Below are positions 5,945-38,669 of a stretch of 64,000 nucleotides of DNA, piece after piece. The notes beneath the pieces are model-generated. The model made no database searches, had not been told where the DNA came from, and was given only the letters and a program-made list of their open reading frames with translations. Positions within the stretch are counted from its first letter, which is position 1; every line of letters begins with the position of its first letter. The translations under genes were made by a program, and so were the position numbers. Source of the DNA: Deltaproteobacteria bacterium (lineage in GTDB: Bacteria > Desulfobacterota > Desulfobacteria > Desulfobacterales > C00003060); contig QMMN01000007.1 in the NCBI GenBank assembly GCA_003647275.1, forward strand, positions 6,830 to 70,829, given 5' to 3'.

Positions 5945-7864
5945 CTATCTGTCCACAAAGGTCCTGTGCCATAATTCCAAAATAAGAAGCGACCAGAGTC
6001 GATCTCCGTGGTCAACCCCCCCCGCCATGTGTTCACGCACAAGGGTCCTGATGGCATCTTTCTTAAAGTACCCGCGGGATAGGGCCTGCTGGCCCAACAA
6101 AAGGTCCGCGGCATACGACTTCAGCTCATTTCGAAACCAGTAGCCAAGGGGAACACCAAAGCCCATCTTGGGCCGCTTCACGATCTTATGAGGGAGAAAG
6201 GGTTTTGCGACCTTTTTCAGGATATATTTTTTGGTCCAATGCCTCAGTCTTAAATGGACCGGGATCCTGGCCACATACTCCATCAGGTGATGGTCCAAAA
6301 AGGGTGATCTGGCCTCCAAGGAATTGGCCATAGAGGCGATATCAGCCTTAACCAGCAAATCATTAGCCAAATAAGAACGCATGTCAAAATCAAGGATCTT
6401 TTCAACTGGGTCATGAGCCGTGCTTTGTTCAAAAAGCGTCAAGATGACCTGGTAGGCATCCTTGTCCGAGACCGTGGTCCTAAAACCATTTGTGTAAATG
6501 TCGGATTTCAACCTCTTGTCAAAATGGCACACCCACTTGATATAATCCTCACCACAGGGGTATGCCATCCCTTCCAGGAAACGCTTCACGCGCCTGACTC
6601 GGTTGTGGATATCCGGGGATTCAGGCCACATTGTCAGCAGTTTCAATAGAAACGGGTTTAAGAATTTTAAGCTTTTTCGGTAGTATCTTCCATACTTGTA
6701 GGCTACATATCGATCATACCCAAAGAAGTTCTCGTCTCCGCCATCCCCGTTCAATGCCACAGTCACGTAATCTCTGGTCAGTCTTGAGACGCAATAGGTG
6801 GGAATAATCGAGGCGTCAGCAAAGGGTTCGCCCAACTGAAACACCAGATCTGGGAGTATATCCAGTGCATTTGGCCTTACCTTAAATTCGTGATGTTCGG
6901 TGCAGTACTTCCCAGCCACGACACGGGCATATGGTAATTCATTGTACGAACTCTCCTCAAAGCCGATTGAAAAGGTCCTGATCGGTTCTGGATGAATATC
7001 GCTCATGAGCGCCACGATAAGGCTGGAGTCTATGCCTCCGCTCAAAAAGGCCCCGAGAGGAACATCGCTAATCATCCTTAATTCGATCGATTCTCGCAGC
7101 TTCTCAAGTAAAGCCTCTGCGATCTCGGCCTCGCCGAGGTCCTCTAACTTGTTGTTATAGTCAAGCGCCCAGTACCGTTTTACCAACAGATTCCCCTTTT
7201 CCCATACGAGGAAGTGGGCGGGTGGAAGCTTTTTAATCGCTTTGAATGCAGTCAAGGGGGCAGGCACATACTGGTAGGTCAAGTAGAGATCTATGGCTGT
7301 ATGATCAATATCTCTTGGAACCGATGTATCCGCCAGAAGGGCACAAAGACTCGAGGCAAAGCTGAGGCTGCCATCTTTTCCAAGCGAATAAAACAGAGGC
7401 TTTTGCCCCAAACGGTCTCTGGCCAAAAAGAGTCTGTTTTTCTCTTCATCCCAAATCGCAAAGGCAAACATACCCCTGAGTCTGCTTAGGAACTCGGTCG
7501 AAAATTCTTGATATGCATAAAGAACAATTTCAGTATCTGTTCTGCTCTTGAATCTATAGCCCCTTGCTATCAGTTCTCGTCTGAGATCTTCGAAATTATA
7601 TACCTCGCCATTATAAACAATCCAAATCTTCCCGTCGCTGTTGCACATGGGCTGGCGGCCTGCCCGTGATAAATCAATGATACTCAACCTTCGATGACCC
7701 AGACCGACTGACACGCCGCCGCCCCTTTTTGACGTTGAACCCTGTTTGATATAGAGCCCATCATCATCCGGCCCTCTGTGTCTCATGGTCTCCCGCATGG
7801 ATAAGAGGATTTCCGGGTCGATCGGCTTCCCCTCGGGGTTGATATGCCCACAAATGCCGCACAT
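5945..7864 (-). CDS. asnB: Asparagine synthase (glutamine-hydrolysing)
   Basis: N-terminal MCGICG (Ntn Cys), a HRGPDD block, and the PP-loop SGGIDSS. 639 aa. Confidence 0.9.
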   Translation of the reverse strand: MCGICGHINPEGKPIDPEILLSMRETMRHRGPDDDGLYIKQGSTSKRGGGVSVGLGHRRLSIIDLSRAGRQPMCNSDGKIWIVYNGEVYNFEDLRRELIARGYRFKSRTDTEIVLYAYQEFSTEFLSRLRGMFAFAIWDEEKNRLFLARDRLGQKPLFYSLGKDGSLSFASSLCALLADTSVPRDIDHTAIDLYLTYQYVPAPLTAFKAIKKLPPAHFLVWEKGNLLVKRYWALDYNNKLEDLGEAEIAEALLEKLRESIELRMISDVPLGAFLSGGIDSSLIVALMSDIHPEPIRTFSIGFEESSYNELPYARVVAGKYCTEHHEFKVRPNALDILPDLVFQLGEPFADASIIPTYCVSRLTRDYVTVALNGDGGDENFFGYDRYVAYKYGRYYRKSLKFLNPFLLKLLTMWPESPDIHNRVRRVKRFLEGMAYPCGEDYIKWVCHFDKRLKSDIYTNGFRTTVSDKDAYQVILTLFEQSTAHDPVEKILDFDMRSYLANDLLVKADIASMANSLEARSPFLDHHLMEYVARIPVHLRLRHWTKKYILKKVAKPFLPHKIVKRPKMGFGVPLGYWFRNELKSYAADLLLGQQALSRGYFKKDAIRTLVREHMAGGVDHGDRLWSLLILELWHRTFVDR

Positions 7865-8097: not shown

Positions 8098-9621
8098 TCA
8101 TCGGTATAGGCGATAGTCGACGCCATATTTTTTTGCCTTATAAGCAAATTTGCGCTCGGTTGTGTGAAGCATCTTTGCGGCCTTTGCCATATTGCCCCGC
8201 GTGCTTTTCAGCGCATCAATAATGATCTCCCGCTCCAGATTCGCCACAGCCTCCTCTAATGACCGCCCAGGCAAGGTACCCGACTCCTCTGCCGTCTGCA
8301 CTGTCGGAGGCAAATGGTAGCTGTGGATCACGCCCTCGTCACAAAGCAGCACGACCCGCTCTATGCAGTTCTCAAGTTCTCGCACGTTCCCAGGCCAGTG
8401 GTACTGCATCAGCATGTCAATAGCCGGCGTCGAAAAACGGCGGATGTCCTTTTGGTTCTCCTTGGCGTATCGCTCTAAAAAGTAGTCCGCTAACAGCAAA
8501 ATATCAGTCTTGCGCTCCCTTAACGGGGGCATGTAAATGGGAAAAACATTCAACCGGTAATACAGGTCGCCACGAAAGCTCCCTTCCGCCACGGCCCGCT
8601 CTAAGTTCTTGTTCGTGGCCGCTATAATGCGAACATCCGCCTTAATGGTCTCATACCCCCCTACCCGCTCAAACTCCTTCTCCTGAAGAACCCGCAAAAG
8701 CTTCACTTGAATCTCCATGTCAACGGAACCAATCTCATCCAAAAAAATCGTCCCTTTGTTCGCCAATTCAAATTTTCCACGCTTTTGCCGAATCGCACCA
8801 GTAAAGGCCCCTTTCTCATGACCGAAAAGCTCGCTTTCAATAAGATTGGCAGGTAGTGCTGCACAGTTCACTTTCACAAACGGGGCATTTGCCCTCAGGC
8901 TGTTATAGTGAATGGCATTGGCTGCCAACTCCTTGCCCGTGCCGCTCTCACCCCGTATCAACACCGTGGCATTGCTCTTGGATACCTGGGAAATCATTTG
9001 AAACACATCCCGCATCTTGTTGCTGTTGCCTATGATATTGGTAATGCGGTACTTATTGGAAAGCTCCTGGCGAAGCCGCCTGTTCTCTTCCCTGAGCCGC
9101 TCCCTTTCAAGGTGGATCGTTTCAAGATTAATCACATGCTGGGCAATCATCGTGGCAATAATGGAAAGCAGCCGCTCCCCGTCCTTTAAGGCGTAAGACG
9201 CCTCATAGGGCCGATCAACACTCAGGGCCCCCACAACCTGACTCCCTTTTTTCACAGGAACGCATATAAAGGAAATCTCCTGGTCCGATACAGCCCTCCT
9301 GGTGGCCGTGCGGTTCAAAAACAAAGGCTCTTCGCTGATCCTCGGCACAACAATAGGCTTGCCTGTCTGGATCACCCGCCCGGTGATCCCCTCACCCATC
9401 TTATACTTACCCCTTTGCATGGCAGCCCTTGAAAGACCGTGCGCAACCTCAATGCTGATCTCATCCCTGAGGGGATTAAGAATGGTGATCGTCCCTCGCA
9501 CCATGTCCGTTGAATCGGAAAGAATGTCCAGAACCTTGTAAAGTGACTTCCTCAGATCCAAACTCATATTGAGGGCTTCGCTGATCTCATAAAGCAAACG
9601 GACTTCTTCAATCTTTCTCAT
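8098..9621 (-). CDS. Sigma-54-dependent transcriptional activator, GAF-AAA+-HTH (NifA-like architecture)
   Basis: N-terminal GAF-like domain of about 170 aa, Walker A GESGTGKE, the GAFTGA loop (HEKGAFTGA), ESELFGHE, and a C-terminal Fis-type [23 protein letters not shown]. Confidence 0.85.
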
Positions 9622-9765: not shown

Positions 9766-11448
<1,683 letters not shown>

Positions 11449-11534: not shown

Positions 11535-14500
11535 CTATGAAGTACTCCCATTTTTCACACGATTGACAATGGACTCGGAAATCTTTTCGGCAGATATACC
11601 AAAGAGTTCTTCAATCTCAAGCAGATTTAGATATTCATCCTTCCAGGCAAGGCTTGTCTCTTCAACAAGATTTCGGATATGATGATATTTGCCCCCTAGA
11701 GCGCTGACCTTATCTTCAAGCTCTACCTGGGTTTTAAATCCAACATTGAATAGTAGGAGATAGTCAATATTGGTGCCGGCTGAGATGACCGGAACGGCAA
11801 GAATACTTCTGTTATCCGTTCTTCCTTTGCCAATAAATACATTCCCGTTCTTCACGATGATCCGCTTGGTACCCCGCAACCTATTATCAGTCTCAACCCG
11901 GGAGACAAGCTCTGCAGCGCTTCCTTCTTTTTTGATCACATGGATGGTCGAATCTTCAACAGGCTCCCCCAAATAGTTCAAACCCGCTATCCTGTAAAGT
12001 GTGGTCCCCTTTATTTCGCTAATGACCGCCTGTAATCGCTTCAACACTAAAACGTTGCTGGTGGTAAGCTGGTTTTGGTTAAACCCATGATTACCGAGTG
12101 CTTCAAAGAGGAGGCCTTCTACCTTTTCTGAGATCCTGCTTGTGCCAACCGTGACAGTTTTCGCCTGGTGTTTTATGGCATCCACAGGCCGGGCCATCTC
12201 ATTGATGACTTTGCCAATACACTCAAAAAAGGCTGTCAGTATATTGGGCGCGGTGCCCTTGATCCCAAAATCAAACTCAAAATCTGAGACAGGGAGTCTT
12301 CCTGCCAGGTATTTTAGCAAGAGCGTGAGATCCGATGCGGCCTGTATTGCCATGGCTGTGGTGTATCGGTTGTGGCTTATTCTCTCCTTGAAGGCCTTAT
12401 AAAACCGCGCTGCCTTTTCTTTAAATCCCTCATCCAGTATGATCTCGTACACATCCTGTCCCTTGTCCATAGAGGTGGCGACATGTTCATGGATCTGCTC
12501 CCGGAAATTGAACAGATATCGGGACTCTTCATTGATGGCCAAGGCTGCGTAGTATCCCCAAAGATGACCTGCCAGGGTGTTTAGTATGGGCGCAAAGTGC
12601 TCCTTTACCTCGGGCACGTAAATCACTGCATCGGCATACGGCTCAAACCGATGCTCGCCTTCTGTGGCCACCACAATCGGCACAGCTTGATGGGCTTTGA
12701 ATATAGCTGTGTCCTTCACAATGTCACCGACGACGTCATCACGGTTGCCTGCGGCACAAACAAAGATCAAGGGCTCCGAAGAAAGATCAATGTGCTTTTT
12801 GTCTTCAACCACGTCTGATGAGATCGTTTTATAGCAAAGTTCGCTCAGTTTTATTCTAATTTCATCAGCAGAGATCTTATTGGGGCCGCTTCCCACAACA
12901 GCCCAGTATTGTTTTGTAACCGCAAATTTCTCTGCTGATTGTCCGATCTCCCGCCGCTTTTCCAACACCTTCTCCATGCATGCAGGAAGCCTCCAAAGGT
13001 GTTCTATCTCCGCTATAATCAAATCGTCTGTTATGCTGCCGACCAATTGGGCCAGCCTCAGCCCCAGGATGCTCCCTCCTACAACCTGAGAATAGTACGC
13101 CTTGGTGGAGGCAACAGACATTTCAATATCTCTGCCGGTGCTCGTATAAAGCACGCCATCCACCTTAAATGTGATGTCAGAGTCCCTCCTGTTGACAATG
13201 GCTATGGTGTAGGCCCCTCGTCCTTTTGCCATATCAATGGCACGATTGGTATCTGTGGTCGTTCCAGACTGCGTGATGGCAACCACCAGGGTATCCTCCA
13301 ATGCGTCTGCAAGCATAAACCCGCTGAATTCAGAAGCCTTAAGGGCAGCCACACGGATATCGGTCTCTTTTAAATAGTACTTCAGCAGTTCCGCACACCC
13401 TGAAGCCGCCACCCCTGCTGTGCCCTGTCCCATAAAAAAAATCTTGCGGATCCTGTTTTGTCTCAAGGCCGATTCAAGGCGAGCCGGTATGACGGAAGCA
13501 TCCAGGAGGATCTGTGGACATCTTTTGCCGTTTTTTTCAACGATGGCCACCCGGCCTTCAATGGTCTGTTCCACCGAGCGTGGCGATTCTGAAATTTCCT
13601 TCAAAAAATAGTGGGGATAGTTCTGGCGGTCGATATCTCTTGAGGTAATTTCTGTCTCTTTAACGTCCTCTTCGGAGAGCTCAATAGGCATGCCATCATA
13701 ATACATGGCCTTGATACCTTCAATGCCTCCACTGGAATTCTGATCCAACACAAATATTTGACCCTGAGTTTTGCCGGATATGCCTTCAACCACCTTCTCC
13801 CCGTCCAGCTTAACATAACGGGGCGTTTCCTCAACAAACCCGTAGCTCTCAGAAGCCAACACATAGTGGTCTTCGGCCAACCCCACAAATATCGCTTGCC
13901 CGCTGCCCTTCTGTGCGAGAAAAATCTTTCCGGGTGCAAGGTCACTGTGCATGGCAATGGCATGAGACCCTTCAAAATCGCTGACTGCCAGGCGAAAGGC
14001 TGTTTCAAGCGTCTTGTCTTTCTTAAGGTACTTTTCTATCTGAAGTGGAATGATCTGAGTATCTGTGGTAATCTCCTTGGCAATAGCCCGCCCACTTTCC
14101 CTTTCATAGTCCCGTTTTAGGCTCTGGTAATTATCAATATCTCCATTCAAACAAACATGAATGATGCCGGTAAGATTTGGCTCGCAGACGCCAACGCCAT
14201 CTTTCTCATGAAAACCGTCTTGCGCCACGCCAAAATTATCAACAGGATGGCAGTTGGCTTCACTGATTTCGCCAACCGAAGCCCAGCGGGTATGGGCCAC
14301 TGCGCTGTGATCAATGTGGGGGAACCTAATGAGGTGCTGGAATATGGCATCCTCCCGAACCTGCTTTCTCAGATATTGAACATTGTCCCCAAGACTTCCG
14401 ATCTCAGCGGCTATCTTGTAAGTGAATGCCAATGAAACCGTGGGACTGTGCTTATTGATCCTGATGCCGCGATTTAATAAGACATAGCCAGCCTGTCTGG

Positions 14501-15272
14501 CCTCAAATTCATCAAGCAGGGATTTCTCTTGCAACGTTTTTTGAAACCGGGAAAAGTTGGCCTCATCAAGTACAAAAAGGAGGGAGATACCTGCAGAGTC
14601 TCTTCCCCTGACTTCAAGTCGATCCAGGTTGTTAAAGACAAGGTTAATCTCTTTGAGCCGCCTCACAGCAAGTGGGGTGTTGTCGTATTGGCCAAATGAG
14701 CCCAAGGCATTTATTTTGTCAATATTTTCAAGGATCTCGTACTTCAAGGACCACAGGATATCCCTCAACTGAATTATGCGGCGACTCATGGATTCATATT
14801 CTTCTGCTGCCAAACGCCCTTTTTTCTGGATCCGAACATTGTCTTCAGCCTCGATCAGGCTCTCTAACTTCGCACAAAGGTTGGAAAGTTGCTCCCTGTA
14901 GCCCCTGTTAGAAAAAACTTCATAAAACTCATCGTGAGCCTTAAATCTATTACAGAGGTGTTTGATCTCCTTCAAGAGATCTTTTCCACCAAGGTAACTG
15001 TCTATTCGTCCCGGCCTTTTTTTTTCGAGCCTCTCCCAGGTGTATTCAAAAAGGGTCTCTACCTTATGCTCTATCTTCTGAACGGGCAAATTTACGGTTT
15101 GGGCAGATCGTCTCTTGAAGGCCAGAACACCTGTTATCCCGCAGTTTAAAACGGCAGGATCATAAGGAAACAGAACTAATGAACCTTCTGCAACCGTTTT
15201 CAAACTCCTTCCAAAGTAAAAGCCGGTAATGCCTTTTGTCTTCAAAAATGCCTTTATTTTCTTGAGTATCAT
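11535..15272 (-). CDS. Giant GlmS-like protein: class-II glutamine amidotransferase plus two SIS domains, with large insertions and extensions
   Basis: NCGITG (Cys44), RGRDSAGIS, HTRWASVG, CHP and LNGDIDNY blocks form the GATase-2 part. SIS motifs are GQGTAG...ITQSGTTTDT and VVGSGPN. At 1245 aa it is about twice the size of a typical GlmS. Confidence 0.75.
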   Translation of the reverse strand: MILKKIKAFLKTKGITGFYFGRSLKTVAEGSLVLFPYDPAVLNCGITGVLAFKRRSAQTVNLPVQKIEHKVETLFEYTWERLEKKRPGRIDSYLGGKDLLKEIKHLCNRFKAHDEFYEVFSNRGYREQLSNLCAKLESLIEAEDNVRIQKKGRLAAEEYESMSRRIIQLRDILWSLKYEILENIDKINALGSFGQYDNTPLAVRRLKEINLVFNNLDRLEVRGRDSAGISLLFVLDEANFSRFQKTLQEKSLLDEFEARQAGYVLLNRGIRINKHSPTVSLAFTYKIAAEIGSLGDNVQYLRKQVREDAIFQHLIRFPHIDHSAVAHTRWASVGEISEANCHPVDNFGVAQDGFHEKDGVGVCEPNLTGIIHVCLNGDIDNYQSLKRDYERESGRAIAKEITTDTQIIPLQIEKYLKKDKTLETAFRLAVSDFEGSHAIAMHSDLAPGKIFLAQKGSGQAIFVGLAEDHYVLASESYGFVEETPRYVKLDGEKVVEGISGKTQGQIFVLDQNSSGGIEGIKAMYYDGMPIELSEEDVKETEITSRDIDRQNYPHYFLKEISESPRSVEQTIEGRVAIVEKNGKRCPQILLDASVIPARLESALRQNRIRKIFFMGQGTAGVAASGCAELLKYYLKETDIRVAALKASEFSGFMLADALEDTLVVAITQSGTTTDTNRAIDMAKGRGAYTIAIVNRRDSDITFKVDGVLYTSTGRDIEMSVASTKAYYSQVVGGSILGLRLAQLVGSITDDLIIAEIEHLWRLPACMEKVLEKRREIGQSAEKFAVTKQYWAVVGSGPNKISADEIRIKLSELCYKTISSDVVEDKKHIDLSSEPLIFVCAAGNRDDVVGDIVKDTAIFKAHQAVPIVVATEGEHRFEPYADAVIYVPEVKEHFAPILNTLAGHLWGYYAALAINEESRYLFNFREQIHEHVATSMDKGQDVYEIILDEGFKEKAARFYKAFKERISHNRYTTAMAIQAASDLTLLLKYLAGRLPVSDFEFDFGIKGTAPNILTAFFECIGKVINEMARPVDAIKHQAKTVTVGTSRISEKVEGLLFEALGNHGFNQNQLTTSNVLVLKRLQAVISEIKGTTLYRIAGLNYLGEPVEDSTIHVIKKEGSAAELVSRVETDNRLRGTKRIIVKNGNVFIGKGRTDNRSILAVPVISAGTNIDYLLLFNVGFKTQVELEDKVSALGGKYHHIRNLVEETSLAWKDEYLNLLEIEELFGISAEKISESIVNRVKNGSTS

Positions 15273-15441
15273 ACCCCTATCTTACAAAATTGTACGTTAA
15301 CAGGGAAAGCCTCCATCTTTCCCATTACTCCTGAGAGAAGGGGGGCGGCCCTAAAAAGTAGTAAATGAGCTTGAACAGATGCTTTAATCAAGCCCTACGT
15401 ATATGATTTTGGGACCTCATCCCTACTCATGCAAAAGGATT

Positions 15442-16188
15442 TTAACCCCTAAGGGCCATCTCAAGCTTTCCAATATCTGCTGGTGTGTCAACTTCCTTTG
15501 AATCATAGCGGGTCTCTACCACTTTAATCCGGTAGCCATGATCCATAGCCCGTAGCTGTTCAAGCTTCTCTATGGCTTCCAGCCTGCCCTGCGGAAGCGA
15601 GGCAAAGCAATCCAAAAAATGCTTCCGGTAAGCATAGATCCCCAGGTGTTTGAAGATATCGAATGACACGGCACCATCCCGGCTACAAGGGATGGTTGAT
15701 CGGGAGAAGTAAAGGGCAAAGTGGTCTTTGTCAAACACACATTTTACGTGATTCGGATCATTGATTTCAGCCGGATCACTTATCTTGTAAATCAGGGTGC
15801 TCATGACAAGGTGGGAATCCTCCAGGAGTGGAGATACAACCTCAGGAAGACACCGCGGATCAAAGGCTGGTTGATCGCCCTGGATGTTGATGACAATATC
15901 TTCGTCTTTTAGGCCAAGTGCTTGGGCGGCCTCTGCTGCCCGGTCTGATCCGGATCGATGGGTTGGCGCTGTCATTAATACCCGGCCACCAAACCCCTGA
16001 ACACACCTATAAATGCGCTCGTCATCTGTGGCAATCACCACGTCGGTCAGAATGGCGGCCTGTTTGGCCTTCTCATACACCCACTGGATCATAGGTTTGC
16101 CGAGAATCGCCATCAGGGGTTTGCCTTCAAATCTCTTGGAACCGTATCTGCAGGGAATGATAGCAACTATTTTCATGAGATCAAACAC
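15442..16188 (-). CDS. kdsB: 3-deoxy-manno-octulosonate cytidylyltransferase (CMP-Kdo synthetase family)
   Basis: VAIIPCRYGSKRFEGKPL N-terminus, the NIQGDQP block, and a typical length of 248 aa. Confidence 0.85.
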   Translation of the reverse strand: MFDLMKIVAIIPCRYGSKRFEGKPLMAILGKPMIQWVYEKAKQAAILTDVVIATDDERIYRCVQGFGGRVLMTAPTHRSGSDRAAEAAQALGLKDEDIVINIQGDQPAFDPRCLPEVVSPLLEDSHLVMSTLIYKISDPAEINDPNHVKCVFDKDHFALYFSRSTIPCSRDGAVSFDIFKHLGIYAYRKHFLDCFASLPQGRLEAIEKLEQLRAMDHGYRIKVVETRYDSKEVDTPADIGKLEMALRG

Positions 16189-16415: not shown

Positions 16416-17621
16416 CTAAAGTACAACAGAGGCCGCCTTTTGGACAGCCGACACAATGGTTTCAAGGCGATCGTCGCTCATTTTCACTGAAATGGGATAG
16501 ACCAGAAGCCTGTCGAAAACCGCTTCTGACTTAGGGAGGTTATCTGGCATATATCTTAATGCCTCTCCTGCTTCGCTTCTTTTGAAAGGCCACCCGGTCC
16601 GACACAGGGTCAAGCCCTGGTGCAGGTGTTCCCATTTCGGATAAAAATGCCAGGTATTTTCTTTAAAGTAGATAGCACCCGCCTTTTCCTCAGACAATAC
16701 CTTTTTAAATTTCCTTGCCGTGCCCCCGTCCGGGAGAAAAAAGGCCAGAAAGGTGGCCGTGTCTCCTGCTGGATCCGGGATTGTTCGAAAAGTCACACCA
16801 TCCACATCTTCAAGAGCCGACCTGATGGCCGCCTTGTGTTTCCTCTGTGCAGCAATGATGTCATCCAGCTTGGCCAGTTGGGCCAGTCCAATCGCTCCTT
16901 GAAGCTCGGTCATCCTGTAATTGAACCCTATGAATCGGCGACCTTCCAAGCCTCGTTCCAGCTCCGGGTTATGGTCATGGCCGTGGTCGTGAAATTCTGA
17001 ACAATTGCGATAAAGGGCCGCATCATTGGTCACAATCATGCCGCCTTCACCTGTTGTGATGGCCTTTACCGGATCAAATGAGAAAATGCCCATGGTACCA
17101 AAGGTCCCTAGGTGGCGACCATTCAAGGTTCCACCGCAGGCCTGAGCTGTATCCTCTATAACGGGAATACCGTGCCTGTCCGCAATGGCTACGATCTCCT
17201 CTATGCGGGCCGGTGCCCCAAGCATATGGACCGGTATGATCGCCCTGGTGCGAGGCGTTATCTTTTGCTCCAAGTCTTCAGGGTCCATGGTCAGGGTTTC
17301 ATCCACCTCTGTAAAGACAGGCACCGCCCCGCTATCCAGAATGGCCTCCCACGTGGCCACAAAGGTAAACCCCTGCGTGATGACCTCGTCGCCAGGACTA
17401 ATACCGAGGGCTGCCATGGCCACACGAAGTGCAGCGGTTCCTGAGGATACTGCCTGTGCATAAGCGGCTCCGCAGTATTCGGCAAATCGTTTTTCAAATT
17501 CAGCTACTTTGTAAACGCCTTTTCGCTGTTCGGCAAACTCATAGCGAAACAGGACCCCGGTATCGAGCACCTCCAAGACCTCACGCTTTTCTTCTTCCCC
17601 AAAAACTTCAAAGCCAGGCAT
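16416..17621 (-). CDS. DegT/DnrJ/EryC1/StrS-family PLP-dependent sugar aminotransferase
   Basis: 401 aa with family-typical blocks AVSSGTAAL, DEVITQGFTFVAT and SFDPVKAITTGEGG (the Lys in the FxxxK context). Confidence 0.85.
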   Translation of the reverse strand: MPGFEVFGEEEKREVLEVLDTGVLFRYEFAEQRKGVYKVAEFEKRFAEYCGAAYAQAVSSGTAALRVAMAALGISPGDEVITQGFTFVATWEAILDSGAVPVFTEVDETLTMDPEDLEQKITPRTRAIIPVHMLGAPARIEEIVAIADRHGIPVIEDTAQACGGTLNGRHLGTFGTMGIFSFDPVKAITTGEGGMIVTNDAALYRNCSEFHDHGHDHNPELERGLEGRRFIGFNYRMTELQGAIGLAQLAKLDDIIAAQRKHKAAIRSALEDVDGVTFRTIPDPAGDTATFLAFFLPDGGTARKFKKVLSEEKAGAIYFKENTWHFYPKWEHLHQGLTLCRTGWPFKRSEAGEALRYMPDNLPKSEAVFDRLLVYPISVKMSDDRLETIVSAVQKAASVVL

Positions 17622-17635
17622 GGGTTTCCTCCTAT

Positions 17636-18793
17636 TTAAAAAGCTGATTGGTAAATCTTGATGGCTGCCTCTTTTGTCATTTTTCTCGGATTGTTTGCAA
17701 TGGGTCGGGCGACCGTCATGGCCATCTCAGCCATGTCCGCTATGGCCGACTCTGGTATGTTAAGATCTTTGAGCCGTTGCGGGATGCCGATATCCCTTGA
17801 GAGCCCTCTAACGACCTCCACACCTGCCTTTGCGGAGACCCCCCGGGAATGTCCTGTTGCCCCGGCTCCTATCAGCAATGCAACCTGTGCATATTTTTCT
17901 TCTGCATCCTCTAGGTTATATGCCATAATATACGGTAAAAGAACGGCATTGGCCAAGCCGTGCGGAATATCAAAAAAGGCGCCGAGTGGATACGCCAAGG
18001 CATGGCAGGCCCCCACACCGGCACTGGCCAGTGCAAGCCCCCCCATGAGGCTTCCCAGCAACATATCACGCCGAGCCTGCAGATCGTCTCCACGGTCAAC
18101 AGCCCGTCTCAAATTCGCCCCGATAAGGCTGATGGCTTCACGGGCCACCAGATCACTGATCGGGTTGGACTGCAATGAGGTAAAGGCCTCAATAGCGTGT
18201 GTTAGGGCATCCATGCCCGTGGTGGCAGTTGGATACGGGGGCAAACTCACGGTCAACTCTGGATCCAGGAGCGCCAGGTCGGGATACATGAAGCGGCTGT
18301 TAATGCCTCCCTTTACCTTTTTCTCTCTCATGGTAAAGACGGCTGTAAAGGTCACCTCACTCCCTGTGCCTGCAGTCGTAGGTATCATGATGGTAGGCAG
18401 GCCGGGCATTGGTACTGTTTCAAGCCCGATATAGTCAACAGCCTTTCCACCGTTTTTAGCCAACATAGCTGCCGCCTTGGCCACATCCAGACTACTGCCT
18501 CCACCCACGCCCACAATAAGGTCACAGCGTTCTTTTATGGCCAGCGCAGCCCCCTCATCTGCCAGAACGGGTTCTGGCTCCGAGGTAACCTTATCGTACA
18601 GAACATAAGAAACGCTATTGGCTTCCAGGGGATCCACGACCCGTTGAGCCACACCGACCTGCTCAAGGCCTTGATCCAGAACCAGCAGGACCTTTGTCCC
18701 GGAAAGTGCCTTAATCTCGTCTGATAGCTTTCTAATAGAACCCTGTCCGAATAAGATCTTCTTAGCACCTTGAAAGGTAAATTGGGATATCAT
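17636..18793 (-). CDS. Iron-containing (group III) alcohol dehydrogenase-family oxidoreductase
   Basis: GVGGGSSLDVAKA and histidine-rich metal-site blocks (THAIEAF, CHALAYPLG). The start is reset to ATG 18793 (MISQFTFQ), which has a GGAGAG RBS. The 40 upstream codons in the ORF track are translated repeat DNA. Confidence 0.85.
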   Translation of the reverse strand: MISQFTFQGAKKILFGQGSIRKLSDEIKALSGTKVLLVLDQGLEQVGVAQRVVDPLEANSVSYVLYDKVTSEPEPVLADEGAALAIKERCDLIVGVGGGSSLDVAKAAAMLAKNGGKAVDYIGLETVPMPGLPTIMIPTTAGTGSEVTFTAVFTMREKKVKGGINSRFMYPDLALLDPELTVSLPPYPTATTGMDALTHAIEAFTSLQSNPISDLVAREAISLIGANLRRAVDRGDDLQARRDMLLGSLMGGLALASAGVGACHALAYPLGAFFDIPHGLANAVLLPYIMAYNLEDAEEKYAQVALLIGAGATGHSRGVSAKAGVEVVRGLSRDIGIPQRLKDLNIPESAIADMAEMAMTVARPIANNPRKMTKEAAIKIYQSAF

Positions 18794-18842
18794 ATCAACT
18801 CTCCACAGGCTGTTGCCCAAATCACCGAAATGCAAATGTGAA

Positions 18843-18909
18843 GCCTCCCCGCCCTCCCGGGCAGGGATTCTGCCTGACGGCAGCGCTTCGCGTCCGGGGA
18901 GCAGGCCGG
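18843..18909. repeat. GC-rich multi-hairpin (cloverleaf-like) repeat, copy 1 (copy 2 at 47403-47470)
   Basis: The outer helix CTCCCCG/CGGGGAG encloses three hairpins: GCCC-tccc-GGGC, CTGCC-tgac-GGCAG and CGC-ttc-GCG. The 3' two-thirds is near-identical to the second copy. Confidence 0.7.
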
Positions 18910-18939
18910 TCAATATGTAAAATGCTCAAACAGTCTAAA

Positions 18940-19068: not shown

Positions 19069-20466
19069 TCAGTATTCAAGGCACAGCTTTGAAAAGCCTT
19101 CTTCTGGCGGTATGGGATACTTACCATTAAAACAGGCCAAACAAAAACCATCCTTTTCAAGTCCCGTAGCCTCAAGCATGCCAGGAAGGCTCAGATAGCA
19201 AAGGCTGTCCAGCCCGATAAAGTTTTTCACCTCTTCCACCGTGTGCTGGGAGGCAATCAGTTCCCCCTTGGTCGAAAAGTCAATACCGTAGTAACAAGGA
19301 TAACGGTGAGGCGGGCAACTTACCACCATGTGAATTTCCCTAGCCCCGGCTTCCCGCAAGGTCTTAATGCGCATCTTGCTCGTGGTACCCCGTATGATCG
19401 AGTCTTCGACAATCACGACACGTTTCCGTTTAAGAATTTCACGAACCGGGTTGAGTTTAACCTTCACCCCGAAGTCCCGCATGGATTGGGCAGGCTCAAT
19501 AAAGGTCCTCCCCACGTAATGGTTCCGGATGACCCCCATCTCCAAGGGTATGCCTGATCCATGACAGAAACCAATGGCGGCATAGTTTCCAGAATCTGGG
19601 AAGGGCATGGCAAAGTCGGCCTCAAGGGGATATTCCTCGGCCAATTTTTTCCCAAGCCTCTTTCGCACAGTATAAACATTCTGGCCAAAGATATTGCTGT
19701 CGGGCCTGGCAAAATAGATAAATTCGAAGATGCAAAATGTACTCCTGCGTTCGGCAAAAGGCCTGATTGACCTTAACCCATCTTGACCAATGATCAATAT
19801 CTCGCCTGGATCAATATCTCTGATATACTGAGCATCTATCAGATCGAGGGCGCATGTCTCAGAGGCGACAATATAGCTCCCGTTGAGCGCTCCAAGACAC
19901 ATGGGACGGAACCCATTGGGGTCCCTGAAAGCCATAAGCTTATCTTCAGTCATCAAGACGCAACAATAAGCCCCTTGAATCTCAGAAACTGCCTTGACCA
20001 CGGCCTCTTCCACCCCATCTTGTATGTTGCGGGCCAGCAGGTGGACGATGATCTCGCTGTCCATGGTGGTCTGAAAAATAGAACCTCTCTTTTCAAGATC
20101 TCCCCTCAGCTTTTTGGCATTGGTGAGATTCCCGTTGTGGGCAATGGCCAGGGTCTTTCCCGCATGGGAAACGACAAACGGTTGGGCGTTTTTGGCAATA
20201 GAAGACCCGGTCGTGGAATATCTAACATGCCCAATGCCTATGTGGCCGCGTAGCGTATTCAAGATCGGTTCATTGAAGACCTCATGGACAAGCCCCATCC
20301 CCTTGTGTTCTTGAATTGACTTACCCGTAGAGGTCACGATACCAGCACTTTCCTGTCCCCGGTGCTGAAGAGCATAGAGCCCAAAATAGGTTAACTTTGA
20401 GGCATCATCGTGTCCGAATACACCAAAGACGCCACATGACTCTTTTGGCCCATGACAAAGTTTCAT
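19069..20466 (-). CDS. purF: Amidophosphoribosyltransferase
   Basis: A short propeptide followed by CGVFGVFGH (Ntn Cys), plus a PRTase domain with VVIVEDSIIRGTT. Confidence 0.95.
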   Translation of the reverse strand: MKLCHGPKESCGVFGVFGHDDASKLTYFGLYALQHRGQESAGIVTSTGKSIQEHKGMGLVHEVFNEPILNTLRGHIGIGHVRYSTTGSSIAKNAQPFVVSHAGKTLAIAHNGNLTNAKKLRGDLEKRGSIFQTTMDSEIIVHLLARNIQDGVEEAVVKAVSEIQGAYCCVLMTEDKLMAFRDPNGFRPMCLGALNGSYIVASETCALDLIDAQYIRDIDPGEILIIGQDGLRSIRPFAERRSTFCIFEFIYFARPDSNIFGQNVYTVRKRLGKKLAEEYPLEADFAMPFPDSGNYAAIGFCHGSGIPLEMGVIRNHYVGRTFIEPAQSMRDFGVKVKLNPVREILKRKRVVIVEDSIIRGTTSKMRIKTLREAGAREIHMVVSCPPHRYPCYYGIDFSTKGELIASQHTVEEVKNFIGLDSLCYLSLPGMLEATGLEKDGFCLACFNGKYPIPPEEGFSKLCLEY

Positions 20467-20482
20467 CCTTTACCCCACCTTT

Positions 20483-23400
20483 TTAGGCGACCTCTTTTCC
20501 TCTCAGTGGCTCCTCTGAGGACTTGTTGCTCCAGTGGTCACAGTCTTTGTGGAAGTTTTGAAGCGATCGAACGGTCATCTTCCTCTTTTTCATCGCTTCA
20601 ATCCCCGAAGCCATGGCACAGGCACCAGCAAGCGTGGTGGCGTATGGCAGACCATATCTTAGGACTGTGCGACGAATGATGCGGGAACCTTTTGCACTTT
20701 CTTTGCCTGAAGGCGTGTTAATCACCAACTGGATATCCCCGTTCTTAATGTAATCAATCACGTTGGGCCGCCCTTCACCGATCTTCTTCACAGGTTGGTT
20801 TATCACGCCGGCTTTTTTTAAGCACTGTGAGGTCCCTCGGGTCGTTAGGATATCAAAGCCCATTTCATACAAGTGCCTTGCCACCGGATAGACCGCCTCC
20901 TTGTCTGCATCCTTGACACTGATAAAGACGGTTCCTTGCGTCGGCAGATATTGTCCTGCACCCAGTTGAGACCGCGCAAATGCCCTGCCAAAGTCAACAT
21001 CGATGCCCATCACCTCACCGGTGGATTTCATCTCAGGGCCCAGAAGAACGTCCACGCCTGGGAAACGATCAAAGGGGAAAACAGCTTCCTTCACTGAAAT
21101 ATGATTGGGTTTTGCTTCTCGAGTCAATCCCAAGTCTTTTAAGGTCCGGCCCAGCATCACCTTGGTAGCCAGCTTGGCCAAGGGAATCCCCGTCGCCTTG
21201 CTGACAAAAGGAATGGTTCGTGAGGCCCTGGGATTGACTTCCAGCACAAAGACTTCTTCGTCCTTGACGGCAAATTGAATGTTGATCAAACCAACCACCT
21301 GGAGTTCACTCGCGAGAGCCCGAGTATTCTCTCTGATCTGTTCCACGAGATCGGGCGGCAGGTCCTGCGGGGGGAGGACACAGGCGCTATCACCTGAATG
21401 GACACCCGCTGCTTCAATGTGCTGCATGATCCCACCGATAATCGTGGTCTGTCCGTCGGAAATCGCATCCACATCAATCTCGATAGCATCTTCAAGGAAT
21501 TTGTCAATCAGGATCGGGTGCTCTGACGCAGCCAGGAGGGCCTCACGCGTAAAGGCCTCCAAAGATAGGCGGTCATAGACAATCTGCATGGCGCGCCCTC
21601 CAAGAACGTAGGAAGGCCGTACAATGACAGGATAGCCGATGGCATCTGCCACAGTTGATGCTTCCTGTACACTGGTCGCGGTCCCGTTATTCGGCTGCTT
21701 CATACCCAGTTTCTTGAGAACATCTTTGAAAAGCTCCCGGTCCTCAGCAAGGGCAATGCTTCTCGGTGACGTCCCAAGGATGGGGACCCCTGCTTCGGCA
21801 AGGGCCGCTGAAAGATTGAGCGGCGTTTGTCCCCCAAATTGCACAATAACCCCTAAGGGTCTTTCGGTCTCCACGATGTTCAAAACATCCTCTTTTGTAA
21901 GAGGCTCAAAATAGAGCTTGTCAGATGTATCATAGTCCGTGCTCACCGTCTCGGGGTTGCTATTGACCATAATGCTCTCGAGGCCTTCTTCCTTCAGGGC
22001 AAAGGAAGCCTGTACACAGCAATAATCAAATTCTATCCCTTGCCCAATCCGATTCGGCCCGCCACCCAGGATCATGACCGTGGGTCTGGTAGAAACCCGT
22101 GCCTCGTTCTCGTTTTCATACGTGGAATAGTAATAGGGGGTTCGAGCTTCAAACTCTGCCGCACAGGTATCTACCAGTTTGTAAACCGGTTGTACGCCAA
22201 GCCGCTTCCGCAAGGCGCGGATCTCATTCTCATCCATTTTCAGGAGGTGAGCCAACTGAACATCAGAAAATCCAAAGCGCTTGCTCTTCCTCATGAGATC
22301 CGCGGGCAAGGGATGACCGGCTGTCAAGATCTCCTGCTCAACACGGACGATCTGGGCAATCTGGTATAGAAACCATGCGTCTATTCCCGTAAGCCTGTGG
22401 ATGGTGTCCACATCCATCCCAGCCTTAATACCGTGCCTAATGTAGAAAAGGCGTTGAGAATTGGGATTAACGAGCTTCTCCCGAATCTCCTCCAGCGAAG
22501 GGACGATCCCTCCCTGCTCTAGTTGATCCCTGCCGTCTGCCCCAAGGCCAAATCGCCCGATCTCCAAAGAACGCAGGCCCTTTTGGAGGGCCTCCTTGAA
22601 TGTCCGGCCGATGGCCATGGTCTCGCCCACTGACTTCATAGCCGTCGTCAGATAATCTTCACTGTCCGGAAATTTCTCAAAGGTCCACCGAGGGATCTTA
22701 ACTACACAGTAGTCAATGGTCGGTTCAAAGGAAGCAACGGTTTCCCCGGTGATGTCGTTTGGAAGCTCGTCCAAGGTATAACCCACAGCCAGCTTGGCGG
22801 CAATCTTGGCAATGGGGAAACCAGTAGCCTTGGAGGCAAGCGCGGAACTCCTTGAGACCCTGGGATTCATCTCGATGACAACCATTTCTCCATCCTCTGG
22901 ATTGACGGCAAACTGGATGTTGGAGCCCCCTGTCTCCACACCAATTTCACGGATCACAGCGATCGCGGCATCACGCATCATCTGATATTCCCTATCGCTC
23001 AAAGTCTGAGCCGGGGCCACGGTAATGCTGTCTCCGGTATGGATGCCCATGGGATCCAAATTTTCGATGGAGCAAATGATCACCACATTGTCTTTTACGT
23101 CCCGCATGACTTCAAGTTCAAATTCTTTCCAGCCGATCACCGATTCCTCGAGCATGATTTCATGAATCAAGCTGGCATCCAACCCCCAGGCAGCCAACCT
23201 CTCAAGGTCTTCCCGGTTGTAGGCCACACCACCACCTGTCCCGCCCAGCGTAAAGCTAGGTCGGACAATAATCGGATAGCCGATGCGGTCTGCAATCTCT
23301 CGAGCCCTCTCCATATCCCGGGCAATGCCGCTTTTGGGCACCCGCAGTCCTATGCGTTCCATGGCCGCCCGAAACAGGTTCCGGTCCTCGGCCTTCTTAA

Positions 23401-23767
23401 TGACATCGACTGAGGCCCCGATCATTTCCACCTTAAATTTTTCCAGCACCCCCATGTTAGCGACTTGCACAGCCGTGTTCAGACCTGTTTGCCCGCCAAG
23501 GGTCGGTAGAATGGCCTGCGGTCTTTCTTGTTCGATAATCATGGCAACCATCTCAGGTGTGACCGGCTCGATATAAGTATGGTCGGCCATCTCAGGATCG
23601 GTCATGATGGTTGCGGGGTTGCTGTTCACAAGCACAATCTCATAGCCTTCCTCTTTTAAGGCCTTGCACGCTTGAGTCCCCGAGTAGTCAAATTCGCAGG
23701 CCTGGCTGATAATAATCGGCCCGGATCCGATGATCATGATCTTTGATATGTCTGTCCTCTTGGGCAT
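20483..23767 (-). CDS. carB: Carbamoyl-phosphate synthase large subunit
   Basis: 1094 aa. Duplicated ATP-grasp halves and an N-terminus [25 protein letters not shown]. Confidence 0.95.
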
Positions 23768-23875: not shown

Positions 23876-25405
23876 TCATTCCCACTCAATGGTACTCGGT
23901 GGTTTGGAGCTAATGTCATATACCACGCGGTTGACGCCTCTGACCTCATTGATAATCCGGTTGGAGATCCTTCCAAGTAGGGAATGGGGAAGCTTGGCCC
24001 AATCAGCGGTCATGGCATCAGTGCTGGTCACCGCCCGAATGGCCACAATGTATTCATACGTTCTCTGGTCCCCCATGATCCCAACGCTTTTCAGGGGAAG
24101 GAGCACCGCAAAAGACTGCCATAACTTTTTATAAAGGTTGCTTGCCCTTATTTCCTCAAGGAGAACGGCATCTACCTTCCGTAAGATGGAAAGCCTTCTA
24201 CGTGTGACGTCACCGATGATTCGAATGGCTAAACCCGGGCCCGGGAAGGGTTGCCTCCAGATAAGATCCTCGGGGAGTCCAAGTGCTTTTCCAAGCAAAC
24301 GGACTTCATCCTTGAAAAGGTGCTTGAGGGGTTCAATGAGTTTCAGCCTCATCTTCTTGGGAAGCCCTCCAACATTATGGTGCGATTTGATCACAGCGCT
24401 GGGGCCCCCAAAAGCCGACCTGGACTCGATGACATCAGGATAGAGGGTCCCTTGGGCCAGAAACTCGACCCCCTTTATCTTGCGGGCCTCGTTTTCAAAG
24501 GCTCGTATAAATGTGCGACCAATAATCTTTCGCTTCTTTTCAGGGTCCACAACCCCCTTTAACCCCTCCAGAAACGGCCTCCTGGCATTGACAAATCTCA
24601 AATTCACCTTAAAGTGTCCCTTAAAAAGTGCCCTGACCTGTTCTGCCTCTGACTGCCTTAAAAGGCCATTATCCAAAAAGATGCACGTCAATTGATTCCC
24701 AATGGCCCGATGCAGGAGCAAGGCGGCAACCGATGAATCCACACCACCGCTTAGTCCCAGGATCACCTTTTTGTCTCCAACCTGAGACCTGATGTCCTGG
24801 ACGGACTCTCTGATGAAAGATTTCATCGTCCAGGTCTTCTTGCACCCACAGATTCGGAAAAGAAAGTTTTTCAGCATCTTCTTTCCCTTAGGTGTATGGA
24901 TGACTTCAGGGTGAAATTGCAGCCCATAAAAGTTTTTTGTGGAATTTTCAGTAGCTGCCACCCTGGTGTTGGGCGTCCATGCCGTGATCCTGAAACCGCT
25001 GGGCAACTTTTCAATGGTGTCTCCATGGCTCATCCAGCATCTTGTCTTTTTTTCGATGCCATAGAAAATGCCTCTTCCATCTTTTATGTGCAGCTCGGCA
25101 AACCCGTATTCTCTTTTTTCAGCCTTTCTTACCTCACCTCCCAAGGCATCCATCATGTACTGCATCCCGTAGCAGATACCAAGAATAGGAATACCTAAAT
25201 CAAAGATGCCCGGATCCACCCTTGGACTGCTCTTTTCATAGATGCTTGCCGGGCCTCCAGACAGGATGATCCCTTCTGGAGAAAGGGCCTTGATCTGTGC
25301 GGTATCTATCCCGTGAGGTTCGATCTGACAATAGACGTGATGTTCCCGGACGCGCCGGGCGATAAGCTGGTTGTATTGGGAGCCAAAATCAATGATCAAG
25401 ATCAC
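23876..25405 (-). CDS. guaA: GMP synthase (glutamine-hydrolysing)
   Basis: N-terminal type-1 GATase, the PP-loop SGGVDSS, and a canonical C-terminus PPSTIEWE. Confidence 0.95.
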
Positions 25406-26499
25406 GCCTGTGCCCTCCCCTTCCTGCCCATAAAGCCAATAAACTGATCAAACAGGTAGCTCGCGTCATGAGGACCGGGGGAAGCCTCAGGATGATACTG
25501 CACCGAAAGGATGGGAAGACTTCGATGCCTCATGCCTTCAAGGGTCTGGTCGTTCAGGTTGATATGGGTTATCTCAATCTCCGGATCTTTGATCGAATCA
25601 ATGTCAACACAAAAACCGTGGTTCTGGGCTGTGATTTCCACCTTGCCTGTCAGGAGATTCTTGACCGGATGGTTTGCACCCCGGTGACCAAATTTCAATT
25701 TAAAGGTCTTACCACCAAAGGCAAGACCCAAAAGTTGATGGCCCAAGCAGATACCAAACATGGGATAATCCCCGATCAGGCGCTTGATGGTATCAACGAC
25801 ATAGTGGATGGGCTCAGGGTCTCCCGGGCCATTGGAAATGACGATGCCATCAGGGTTCATGGCCTTGATCTCCTCAGCAGCAGTAGAAGCCGGCACAATC
25901 GTCACATTGCACCCTCTCCGGGCTAAGCATCGAGCGATGTTGAACTTCATGCCGCAATCGAGCACAACGATGTTAAGGTGAGCCTCTTTGTCTTGTGATG
26001 TCCAATAGGGCTTAAGACAGGTAACCTCTTTGACCAAATCACGACCAACAAGTCCTTGAGAAGCCTTAGCCTTTTTAATCAAAGAAGCAGGATCGAGGTC
26101 CGTGGTTGAGATGACACCCTTCATCGCGCCTTCCAGTCTGATATGTCGCGTCAGCGCGCGGGTATCCACGCCCTCAATGCCAATAATTCCTTGCCGGCTC
26201 AGATAATCGGCTAGGGTCTCTTGAGATCGCCAATTGCTCGGTATGGGTTCATACTCTTTTACGACAAACCCCTCAACCTGAATCCTGCTTGATTCAACGT
26301 CTTGGGAGTTGATGCCGTAATTACCAATGAGGGGATAGGTCATGGTGACAATTTGCCCCTTGTAAGAGGGGTCTGTCAGAATTTCCTGGTAACCTGTCAT
26401 GCTTGTGTTAAAAACGACCTCGCCCGAGACCTCTCCCTCCCCGGCAAAGGTGTTCCCATAAAACACGGTTCCGTCTTCTAAGGCCAATAATGCTTTCAT
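25402..26499 (-). CDS. carA: Carbamoyl-phosphate synthase small (glutaminase) subunit
   Basis: [16 protein letters not shown]-terminus and GICLGHQ. The start is reset to ATG 26499, one nt after the hisF stop. The longer ORF-track start overlaps hisF. Confidence 0.9.
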
Positions 26500-26500
26500 C

Positions 26501-27280
26501 CTACCAGCGCATCCGCACCTTGACGTCGCGAGCGTGCAGCGTTTCCTTAATCTGCCTGATCGTGTAAGTCCCATAGTGGACGATAGAGGCCACAAGGGCG
26601 GCATCGGCCTTGCCCTTGGTTAGGACGTCATGGATATGATTGATGTTCCCGGCACCACCCGAAGCGATGACCGGAATATTTACATTCTCAGATATGAGAG
26701 GCGTTAACGTCATTTCATAACCCTGCTGGGTGCCGTCCGCATCAATAGAATTCAGGCATATCTCGCCTGCCCCCAAGCCTTCCGCCTCCTTGGCCCAAGC
26801 AAGGGCGTCTATTCCCGTATAAGTCCTGCCGCCGTGAATAACGATCTCATAACCTGACGGGATCTTATGAGAGGCTTCCACCTTTTTGACGTCCATCCCG
26901 AGGACAATGCACTGGCTCCCAAAGGCCCTGGCCCCATCTGAGATGATCTTAGGACTCTGGACTGCCGCCGTGTTCACACTGACCTTTTCCGCCCCGGCCA
27001 AAAGCACTCGGCGCATATCGTCGAGGGTCCTAATCCCTCCACCCACGGAGAAGGGGATAAAGATCTCCCCGGCCACGCGGCGGACCACATCGATCATAAT
27101 ATCACGGTGGTCGCTCGAAGCCGTGATGTCGTAAAAGACGATCTCGTCGGCCCCCTGCTCATAATAGAACCTGGCCATCTCCACAGGGTCGCCGATGTCC
27201 ACATTCCCTTTGAACTTTATCCCCTTGGTTGTCTTCCCGTCTCTCACATCAAGACAGGGTATAATCCTTTTACTCAGCAT
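26501..27280 (-). CDS. hisF: Imidazole glycerol phosphate synthase, cyclase subunit
   Basis: [21 protein letters not shown]-terminus. 259 aa. Confidence 0.95.
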
Positions 27281-38558: not shown

Positions 38559-38669
38559 CTCATATGATGCCCCGGTGCACCGCTAACCAATGTACCTCCG
38601 TGGAGCAGGCCCTGATCATTGGGGGCACATAAACGGCCAGGCCAGTACAGCCAAGGGATAAACCGCCTT

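Follow-up and report, generated by a model that had tools for sequence, protein, structure and literature searches.

A long-form GlmS-like amidotransferase with three added modules and a putative propeptide in Desulfobacterales-type bacteria

The minus strand of the 64,000-nucleotide stretch of DNA analysed here (the window; contig QMMN01000007.1) carries an open reading frame (ORF) of 1245 codons whose product resembles GlmS, the glutamine:fructose-6-phosphate amidotransferase that makes glucosamine-6-phosphate (GlcN-6-P). A preliminary description, made from the letters alone, had presented it as a GlmS-like protein of 1245 residues with two SIS domains. The composition is even and the reading frame is unbroken along the whole ORF, and the description was confirmed. 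GlmS was the best match in both NCBIfam and the PDB. The top NCBIfam matches were GlmS models at 243-269 bits, the hidden Markov model (HMM) match being split into pieces by inserts. The best PDB sequence match was E. coli GlmS (1e-23), with residues 317-912 aligned to GlmS 61-590 and a second, weak segment aligning residues 210-244 to GlmS 14-46. In Pfam the protein matched GATase_6/7 at residues 321-476 and a single SIS domain at 609-731; the second SIS domain was recovered by the GlmS alignment (317-912) and by Foldseek. As argued below, the gene probably encodes a long-form GlcN-6-P synthase. The features of the gene and its product, together with the two neighbouring genes, are collected in Table 1.

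Table 1. Features of the long GlmS-like gene, its product and its neighbours; positions are those of the window, and single residues are given with their E. coli GlmS equivalents
Feature	Residues	Position	Strand	Basis or role
Long-form GlmS-like amidotransferase/isomerase ORF	1-1245	11535..15272	-	ATG start, 1245 aa, stop codon 11535-11537
N-terminal extension, putative propeptide	1-43	15144..15272	-	Conserved among 39 homologues
Cys44 codon (TGC), predicted N-terminal nucleophile (Ntn), Cys1 of E. coli GlmS	44	15141..15143	-	Invariant C44-G45
Helical-bundle insert between strand beta1 and helix alpha1	~57-199	14676..15104	-	AlphaFold2
Class-II glutaminase core	200-545	13638..14675	-	Pfam GATase_6/7, E. 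coli GlmS mapping, invariance, Foldseek
Linker and double SIS isomerase domain	546-912	12537..13637	-	Pfam SIS, alignment to GlmS 244-590
Helical module, no recognised family	913-1027	12192..12536	-	AlphaFold2 long helices
Invariant motif RPxDAIKHQAKTVTVGTSR	1028-1046	12135..12191	-	Proposed equivalent of GlmS C-terminal lid, Lys603 to Lys1038
C-terminal alpha/beta domain, no recognised family	1047-1245	11538..12134	-	AlphaFold2, pLDDT 75-92
kdsB (CMP-Kdo synthetase), upstream neighbour		15442-16188	-	Above NCBIfam cut-off
pyrG (CTP synthase), downstream neighbour		9766-11418	-	Above NCBIfam cut-off
Arg222 (GlmS Arg26)	222			Glutaminase
Asp225 (GlmS Asp29)	225			Glutaminase
His327 (GlmS His71)	327			Glutaminase
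Arg329 (GlmS Arg73)	329			Glutaminase
Trp330 (GlmS Trp74)	330			Ammonia channel
Ser332 (GlmS Thr76)	332			Glutaminase
His342 (GlmS His86)	342			Glutaminase
Asn376 (GlmS Asn98)	376			Oxyanion hole
Gly377 (GlmS Gly99)	377			Oxyanion hole
Asp404 (GlmS Asp123)	404			Glutaminase
Thr618 (GlmS Thr302)	618			Isomerase
Thr667 (GlmS Ser347)	667			Isomerase
Gln668 (GlmS Gln348)	668			Isomerase
Ser669 (GlmS Ser349)	669			Isomerase
Thr672 (GlmS Thr352)	672			Isomerase
Lys808 (GlmS Lys485)	808			Isomerase
Glu811 (GlmS Glu488)	811			Isomerase
His827 (GlmS His504)	827			Isomerase

Both active sites of a GlmS-type enzyme were found in the protein. The residue equivalences, taken from sequence alignment to E. 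coli GlmS, gave the set of glutamine-binding and oxyanion residues with the channel Trp, and two SIS subdomains with the sugar-phosphate site and the catalytic Lys, Glu and His, save for Ser303, which corresponds to Ala619. The mapped catalytic and binding positions were invariant in 22-39 close homologues, and the equivalent positions were invariant in 12 distant members of the family at 36-43% identity, which argues that both active sites are under selection across the family. AlphaFold2 half-models were built from 39-sequence alignments for residues 1-560 (predicted local distance difference test score, pLDDT, 74) and 541-1245 (pLDDT 80). In Foldseek the N-terminal half-model matched the glutaminase domains of GlmS, GFAT and PurF, and the isomerase region matched those of GlmS and GFAT with a template-modelling (TM) score of ~0.82 (on target).

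The nucleophile motif N-C-G-I-T-G lies at residues 43-48, with the cysteine at position 44, inside the chain as the preliminary description had it. The GlmS-like block that follows the cysteine, LDRLEVRGRDSAGIS, was found at residues 216-230, and Arg222 sits 178 residues beyond Cys44, compared with 25 in E. coli GlmS, so that the long spacer reported earlier is real. The earlier wording of a 'split' amidotransferase domain does not hold; the domain is rather a single one, interrupted by an insertion after strand beta1 and before helix alpha1. In the model, residues 64-191 fold with confidence into a helical bundle (pLDDT ~90), after which a helix at 200-217 leads into the RGRDSAG strand and the usual glutaminase sandwich; within the core lies a variable loop at ~345-368. 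Sequence alignment gave the bundle no counterpart in E. coli GlmS. The insert is common to all family members, in which the RLEVRG sequence occurs 140-245 residues from the N-terminus.

The C-terminal third had been described as matching nothing recognisable, and this stands: residues 913-1245 (333 residues) had no match in Pfam or NCBIfam, the C-terminal alignment used as a profile against PDB sequences returned a chance hit only (E 0.9), and Foldseek of both half-models returned only the cores of GlmS, GFAT and PurF, with no match for the extra modules. In the C-terminal half-model the double SIS fold is followed by long helices (~913-1035), then by a stretch of low confidence (1033-1049) and last by an alpha/beta domain that runs to the end and carries conserved SR, GTKRIIV and GNVFIGxGxxDxRS motifs. 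The most conserved stretch of this third is RPxDAIKHQAKTVTVG[TI]SR, invariant in close and distant members alike. Within it, HQAKTVTVG resembles LAKSVTVE, from the decapeptide lid with Lys603 that ends the E. coli GlmS chain. The model has low pLDDT at this motif, as expected for a lid that depends on ligand, and in the long form the motif is internal, with ~200 residues beyond it. On the strength of this resemblance we interpret the C-terminal third as three parts in a row, an inserted helical module, a displaced lid and an added domain, and we infer that HQAKTVTVG is the GlmS lid in a new position. What had been called a C-terminal extension is then, as far as the lack of known relatives goes, correctly described, but it probably combines an insertion with an extension, with the GlmS C-tail-like motif apparently inside. 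An internal duplication, in which the C-terminal domain would be a degenerate SIS domain and the helical modules would be related to each other, was tested by hhalign of sub-alignments and gave nothing; the test was without power, because the known relation between the two SIS domains went undetected in the same way.

The residues in front of Cys44 are part of the protein. Over the 43 leading codons the ratio of nonsynonymous to synonymous substitution (dN/dS) was 0.12-0.17 against L002 and L003, the two closest loci with unsaturated dS; these codons are translated and under purifying selection. Gly30 and Pro36 are invariant among 39 homologues, a VPxGSxVxFP motif lies 8-9 residues before the cysteine, and the hydrophobic-FP motif was seen again even in the most distant N-extended members. 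With TTA AAC at codons 42-43, no start codon stands where it could make the cysteine residue 2; apart from the ATG, the in-frame start-type codons before Cys44 are limited to TTG at codons 10 and 24, either of which would leave at least 20 residues ahead of it. We noticed that the sequence GGAAGGAG within the ORF adjoins the TTG codon of Leu24, and that in the 169 bp separating kdsB from the ATG (15273-15441) a G-rich, Shine-Dalgarno-like AGGGG stands a single base away from the start codon, an unusually tight spacing.

Cys44 aligns with the position-2 cysteine of those family members that begin with MCG. Among ~52 distinct full-length representatives, 38-40 start with MCG[IVLF], and about a dozen have 17-71 residues before the cysteine. 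In a neighbour-joining tree built on the sequence that follows the cysteine, the N-extended forms, the window protein included, fell in essentially one clade, within which a single Met-Cys sequence (P0134) is nested; the extension is thus a derived, clade-specific addition. Ntn amidotransferase chemistry requires a free alpha-amino group on the cysteine. This need, together with the invariance of the glutaminase residues in the N-extended clade, suggests that a propeptide is removed at Asn43-Cys44, and PurF-like removal is the most likely explanation of the extension. The preliminary description had left the choice between a propeptide and a non-canonical glutaminase; the MCG starts, the single N-extended clade and the retained glutaminase residues favour the former, and it is from these comparative data that we infer cleavage. 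In MEROPS family C44 a few residues precede the N-terminal cysteine and are autocatalytically cleaved (PMC9140057). The window itself encodes a PurF whose product begins MKLCHGPKES-CGVFG (19069-20466, minus strand), with the nucleophile cysteine at residue 11 behind a short PurF-type propeptide, and an asnB-like gene whose product begins with MCG.

The phylogenetic survey that had been proposed was carried out and showed that the protein is no one-off: its family is large and spans several phyla. Full-length homologues with 57-79% identity and 1220-1290 residues, of which there are more than 120, all came from Desulfobacterales-type metagenome-assembled genomes. Long-form homologues are named 'SIS domain-containing protein' by NCBI and GlmS by JGI. 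GTDB was scanned, one genome per species, for two peptide patterns drawn from the last third of the chain, and the C-terminal module proved to be encoded in at least 582 species genomes; the best 80 of these were all Desulfobacterales-type and included Desulfosarcina, Desulfonema, Desulfatibacillum and Desulfococcaceae. An exhaustive HMMER search with residues 913-1245 gave at least 399 clusters at 50% identity, and in every full-length match examined the region formed the C-terminus of a GlmS-like protein of 1100-1280 residues. A profile of distant members recovered Planctomycetota, Eremiobacterota/Xenobia, Riflebacteria, Schekmanbacteria, Acidimicrobiales and other Actinobacteria. Matches of ~340 residues, candidates for a standalone C-terminal module, all began at the internal Met of NTMVGHL[WF]GY and were rejected as fragments. 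Neither long GlmS forms nor a GlmS propeptide nor the glmS of Desulfobacterales proved to be described in the searchable literature. Together, the sequence data point to a widespread, uncharacterised long-form GlmS family that probably includes a zymogen sub-clade.

The position of the gene between kdsB and pyrG, as first described, proved to be one context among several, and the most telling ones contain glmM. In a set of 80 related loci kdsB lies immediately upstream in 14, pyrG adjoins or lies nearby in 26, and a DegT aminotransferase gene with an iron-dependent alcohol dehydrogenase (Fe-ADH)-type gene lies directly upstream in ~22. In L081, L006, L008, L057 and L082 the gene next upstream, in the same orientation, is glmM, and glmM is also the immediate upstream gene in L084-L087 and L090; the glmM calls were above the TIGR01455 equivalog cut-off in L081, L082, L084 and L086 and rested on tblastn or Pfam domain content in the other loci. 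Acidimicrobiales-type genomes, a set in which one record is labelled Thermoanaerobacterales, have the order rplM-rpsI-glmM-X-acpS, where X is the long GlmS-like gene, and L084-L087 continue after acpS with nnr-alr, a Peptidase_S58 gene and tsaE-tsaB-rimI-tsaD. This is the conserved neighbourhood in or near which canonical actinobacterial glmS lies, with rplM, rpsI, alr and the tsa genes likewise placed in M. tuberculosis. The M. tuberculosis loci are Rv3436c for glmS and Rv3441c for glmM (PMC9366312). No link to glmU was seen in the loci examined.

Several other genes at these loci deserve mention. In L081 (8963-9925), and also in L006, L007 and L008, a 320-residue NagB-like protein is encoded between glmM and the long GlmS-like gene; it matched the glucosamine-6-phosphate deaminase model in two pieces (4-122 and 168-300) separated by a ~45-residue insert, below the cut-off. 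Directly downstream of the long GlmS-like gene, L081 (13805-15535) and L008 (5432-7153) encode a conserved protein of 576 residues with no Pfam or NCBIfam match. In the window, a DegT/PseC-type aminotransferase gene and an Fe-ADH-family gene lie beside kdsB and the long GlmS-like gene (16416-18913, minus strand), as they do in L018, L025, L043, L082 and about 20 other loci. The KdnA/KdnB pair makes 8-amino-Kdo in Shewanella (PMC5125639), and the DegT and Fe-ADH pair recalls it, the likeness being one of gene pair and not of compared sequences. The long gene also falls within a run of amidotransferase genes on one strand (5945-26604, minus strand) that comprises carA (25402-26604), guaA (23876-25405), carB (20483-23767), purF (19069-20466), the long GlmS-like gene, pyrG and an asnB/XrtA-type amidotransferase gene (5945-7864), with a gene for a NifA-like sigma-54 activator at 8098-9621 inside the run. 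Another very long ORF, of 1285 codons with a TTG start, lies at 38619-42476 on the plus strand. Neither a glmS ribozyme nor any other Rfam family was found in the window, and promoter and terminator scans there gave results at chance level.

The intact active sites, taken with the glmM and Acidimicrobiales contexts, make a long-form GlcN-6-P synthase of GlmS type the best reading of the gene, and we hold it to be probable. In such an enzyme Cys44 would hydrolyse glutamine, ammonia would move through the channel gated by Trp330 and be added to fructose-6-phosphate at the Lys808/Glu811/His827 site, and the lid with Lys1038 would close the sugar site. Around this core stand the three family-wide additions, namely the ~150-residue helical bundle, the ~115-residue helical module and the ~200-residue alpha/beta domain, whose role, as a guess, may be regulation or assembly. 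In the N-extended clade, removal of the ~43-residue propeptide at Asn43-Cys44, probably autocatalytic as in PurF-type (MEROPS C44) precursors, would activate the glutaminase. A number of points count against this picture. The scores fall below the curated GlmS cut-offs, with 243.4 against 418.05 bits for TIGR01135 and 268.7 against 381 bits for NF001484; the phosphate-binding Ser303 is Ala619, the sole departure among the mapped GlmS residues; and the window gene adjoins kdsB and pyrG, not glmM or glmU. A chimeric query lacking the helical module aligned only as far as ~GlmS residue 594, short of the C-tail. The nucleophile strand (residues 41-61, low confidence) is not docked in the AlphaFold2 fold, in which residues 1-61, Cys44 among them, are all of low confidence, and we know of no precedent for a 43-residue propeptide on a GlmS-type enzyme. 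Finally, if a canonical 610-residue glmS co-occurs with the long form, the latter is a paralogue, possibly with another substrate.

That last point leads to the most serious competitor, according to which a canonical glmS elsewhere in the genome makes GlcN-6-P and the long form aminates a different ketose phosphate, for instance an amino-sugar precursor related to the lipopolysaccharide (LPS) core or to Kdo (3-deoxy-D-manno-octulosonic acid). The gene does stand beside kdsB or the DegT and Fe-ADH-type pair, with its reminder of KdnA/KdnB, in the window and in many Desulfobacterales loci, it scores below the GlmS equivalog cut-off, and both the exchange of Ser303 for Ala619 and the extra domains, which could reshape the sugar site, would suit a new substrate. 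Yet every other residue that binds fructose-6-phosphate or takes part in catalysis is invariant, glmM recurs right beside the gene in several lineages, and Acidimicrobiales-type genomes have the long form directly behind rplM-rpsI-glmM. A search of the window and of 80 related loci, ~1.2 Mb in all, turned up no other GlmS-like gene, but this sample is far too small to conclude from. On balance we regard such a paralogue as rather unlikely.

We consider it still less probable that the extension is retained, with the glutaminase permanently or conditionally inactive and the protein serving either to make GlcN-6-P with ammonia or to deaminate it, or else to sense sugar phosphates. The leader is long and has a conserved motif of its own, SIS-only relatives such as NagB-II (matched through NF046059) work without a glutaminase, and L081 has a nagB-like gene between glmM and the long GlmS-like gene; but the cysteine, the oxyanion Asn-Gly and the glutamine-binding Arg and Asp are invariant in the N-extended clade, which would not be expected of a dead domain, and the sister lineages begin with canonical Met-Cys. 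As for an artefact, be it separate genes joined by mis-assembly or mis-calling or a normal Met-Cys start masked by a wrong start codon, no support was found; the suspicion could be raised only by the uncommon length of the ORF and by the Shine-Dalgarno spacing before its ATG, which is weak. Both possibilities had been named in the preliminary description as what would overturn it, and both fail. The full-length architecture recurs in hundreds of independent assemblies, multi-megabase contigs included, the frame is continuous and the composition even, and the TTA AAC codons and the purifying selection on the 43 upstream codons count against a hidden Met-Cys start. The long-form architecture is real, and an artefact is excluded to the point where we give it hardly any credence.

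GlmS starts cell-wall amino-sugar synthesis and is essential for peptidoglycan and LPS. To our knowledge it is tightly regulated in every lineage studied, each time by a different mechanism; known controls are the glmS ribozyme, the small RNAs (sRNAs) GlmY and GlmZ, and feedback by UDP-N-acetylglucosamine on GFAT. As a member of a classical type of enzyme with a probably ordinary activity, the long form draws its interest from the unexplained additions, the breadth across phyla and the regulation of GlmS elsewhere. About 480 of its ~1200 residues fall in no described domain, that is, under no Pfam or NCBIfam model. Should the long form be the housekeeping enzyme, its HMM-based annotation as 'SIS domain-containing protein' hides the first amino-sugar step in these organisms, and the extra modules and the propeptide become candidates for a new form of control. 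A bolder proposal is that several bacterial lineages, Desulfobacterales, Acidimicrobiales, some Planctomycetota and Eremiobacterota among them, have no GlmS other than the long form, that its three extra modules regulate hexosamine flux at the protein level, and that the Desulfobacterales-type clade adds a zymogen step by cleavage of the 43-residue propeptide; we put this forward tentatively, as a possibility on the doubtful side. If true, this would be a control of GlmS distinct from the ribozyme, the sRNAs and the feedback on GFAT. The propeptide, for its part, would carry the PurF-like processing of precursors over to the GlmS branch of class-II amidotransferases.

Compared with known systems, the long form is closest in plan to bacterial GlmS (EC 2.6.1.16; PDB 2J6H, 1JXA and 4AMV), with which it shares a class-II glutaminase followed by two SIS subdomains, the cysteine nucleophile and the mapped glutaminase and isomerase residues, an AK[ST]VTV lid-like motif and, in relatives, linkage to glmM. 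It differs in having 1245 residues where bacterial GlmS has 609, through a ~150-residue bundle after strand beta1, a ~115-residue module before the lid-like motif and a ~200-residue domain after it, and, in the clade of the window protein, through the 43-residue extension before the cysteine; it also scores below the curated cut-offs and has Ala in place of Ser303. SIS-only relatives (NagB-II glucosamine-6-phosphate deaminase, FrlB and AgaS; PDB 8EOL and 3HBA) have the same double SIS fold and gave weak HMM matches, whereas they are without the glutaminase domain and all three extra modules. Eukaryotic GFAT1 and GFAT2 (human GFAT-1, PDB 6R4E) are likewise GlmS-type enzymes enlarged by lineage-specific regulatory sequence, and both halves of the long form match them structurally; in contrast, their insert is short and elsewhere in the glutaminase domain, they have no C-terminal module and no propeptide, and identity is ~17-23%. 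For the extension, the large subunit of glutamate synthase is also a class-II Ntn precursor with residues before the cysteine. The nearest parallel is offered by PurF-type precursors (glutamine phosphoribosyl pyrophosphate amidotransferase; MEROPS C44), in which residues translated before the catalytic cysteine are removed to expose it (PMC9140057), as we suggest for the 43 residues of the long form. PurF differs in its synthase domain, and its leaders, of ~10 residues and without sequence similarity to this one, compare with 43 residues bearing a hydrophobic-FP motif here.

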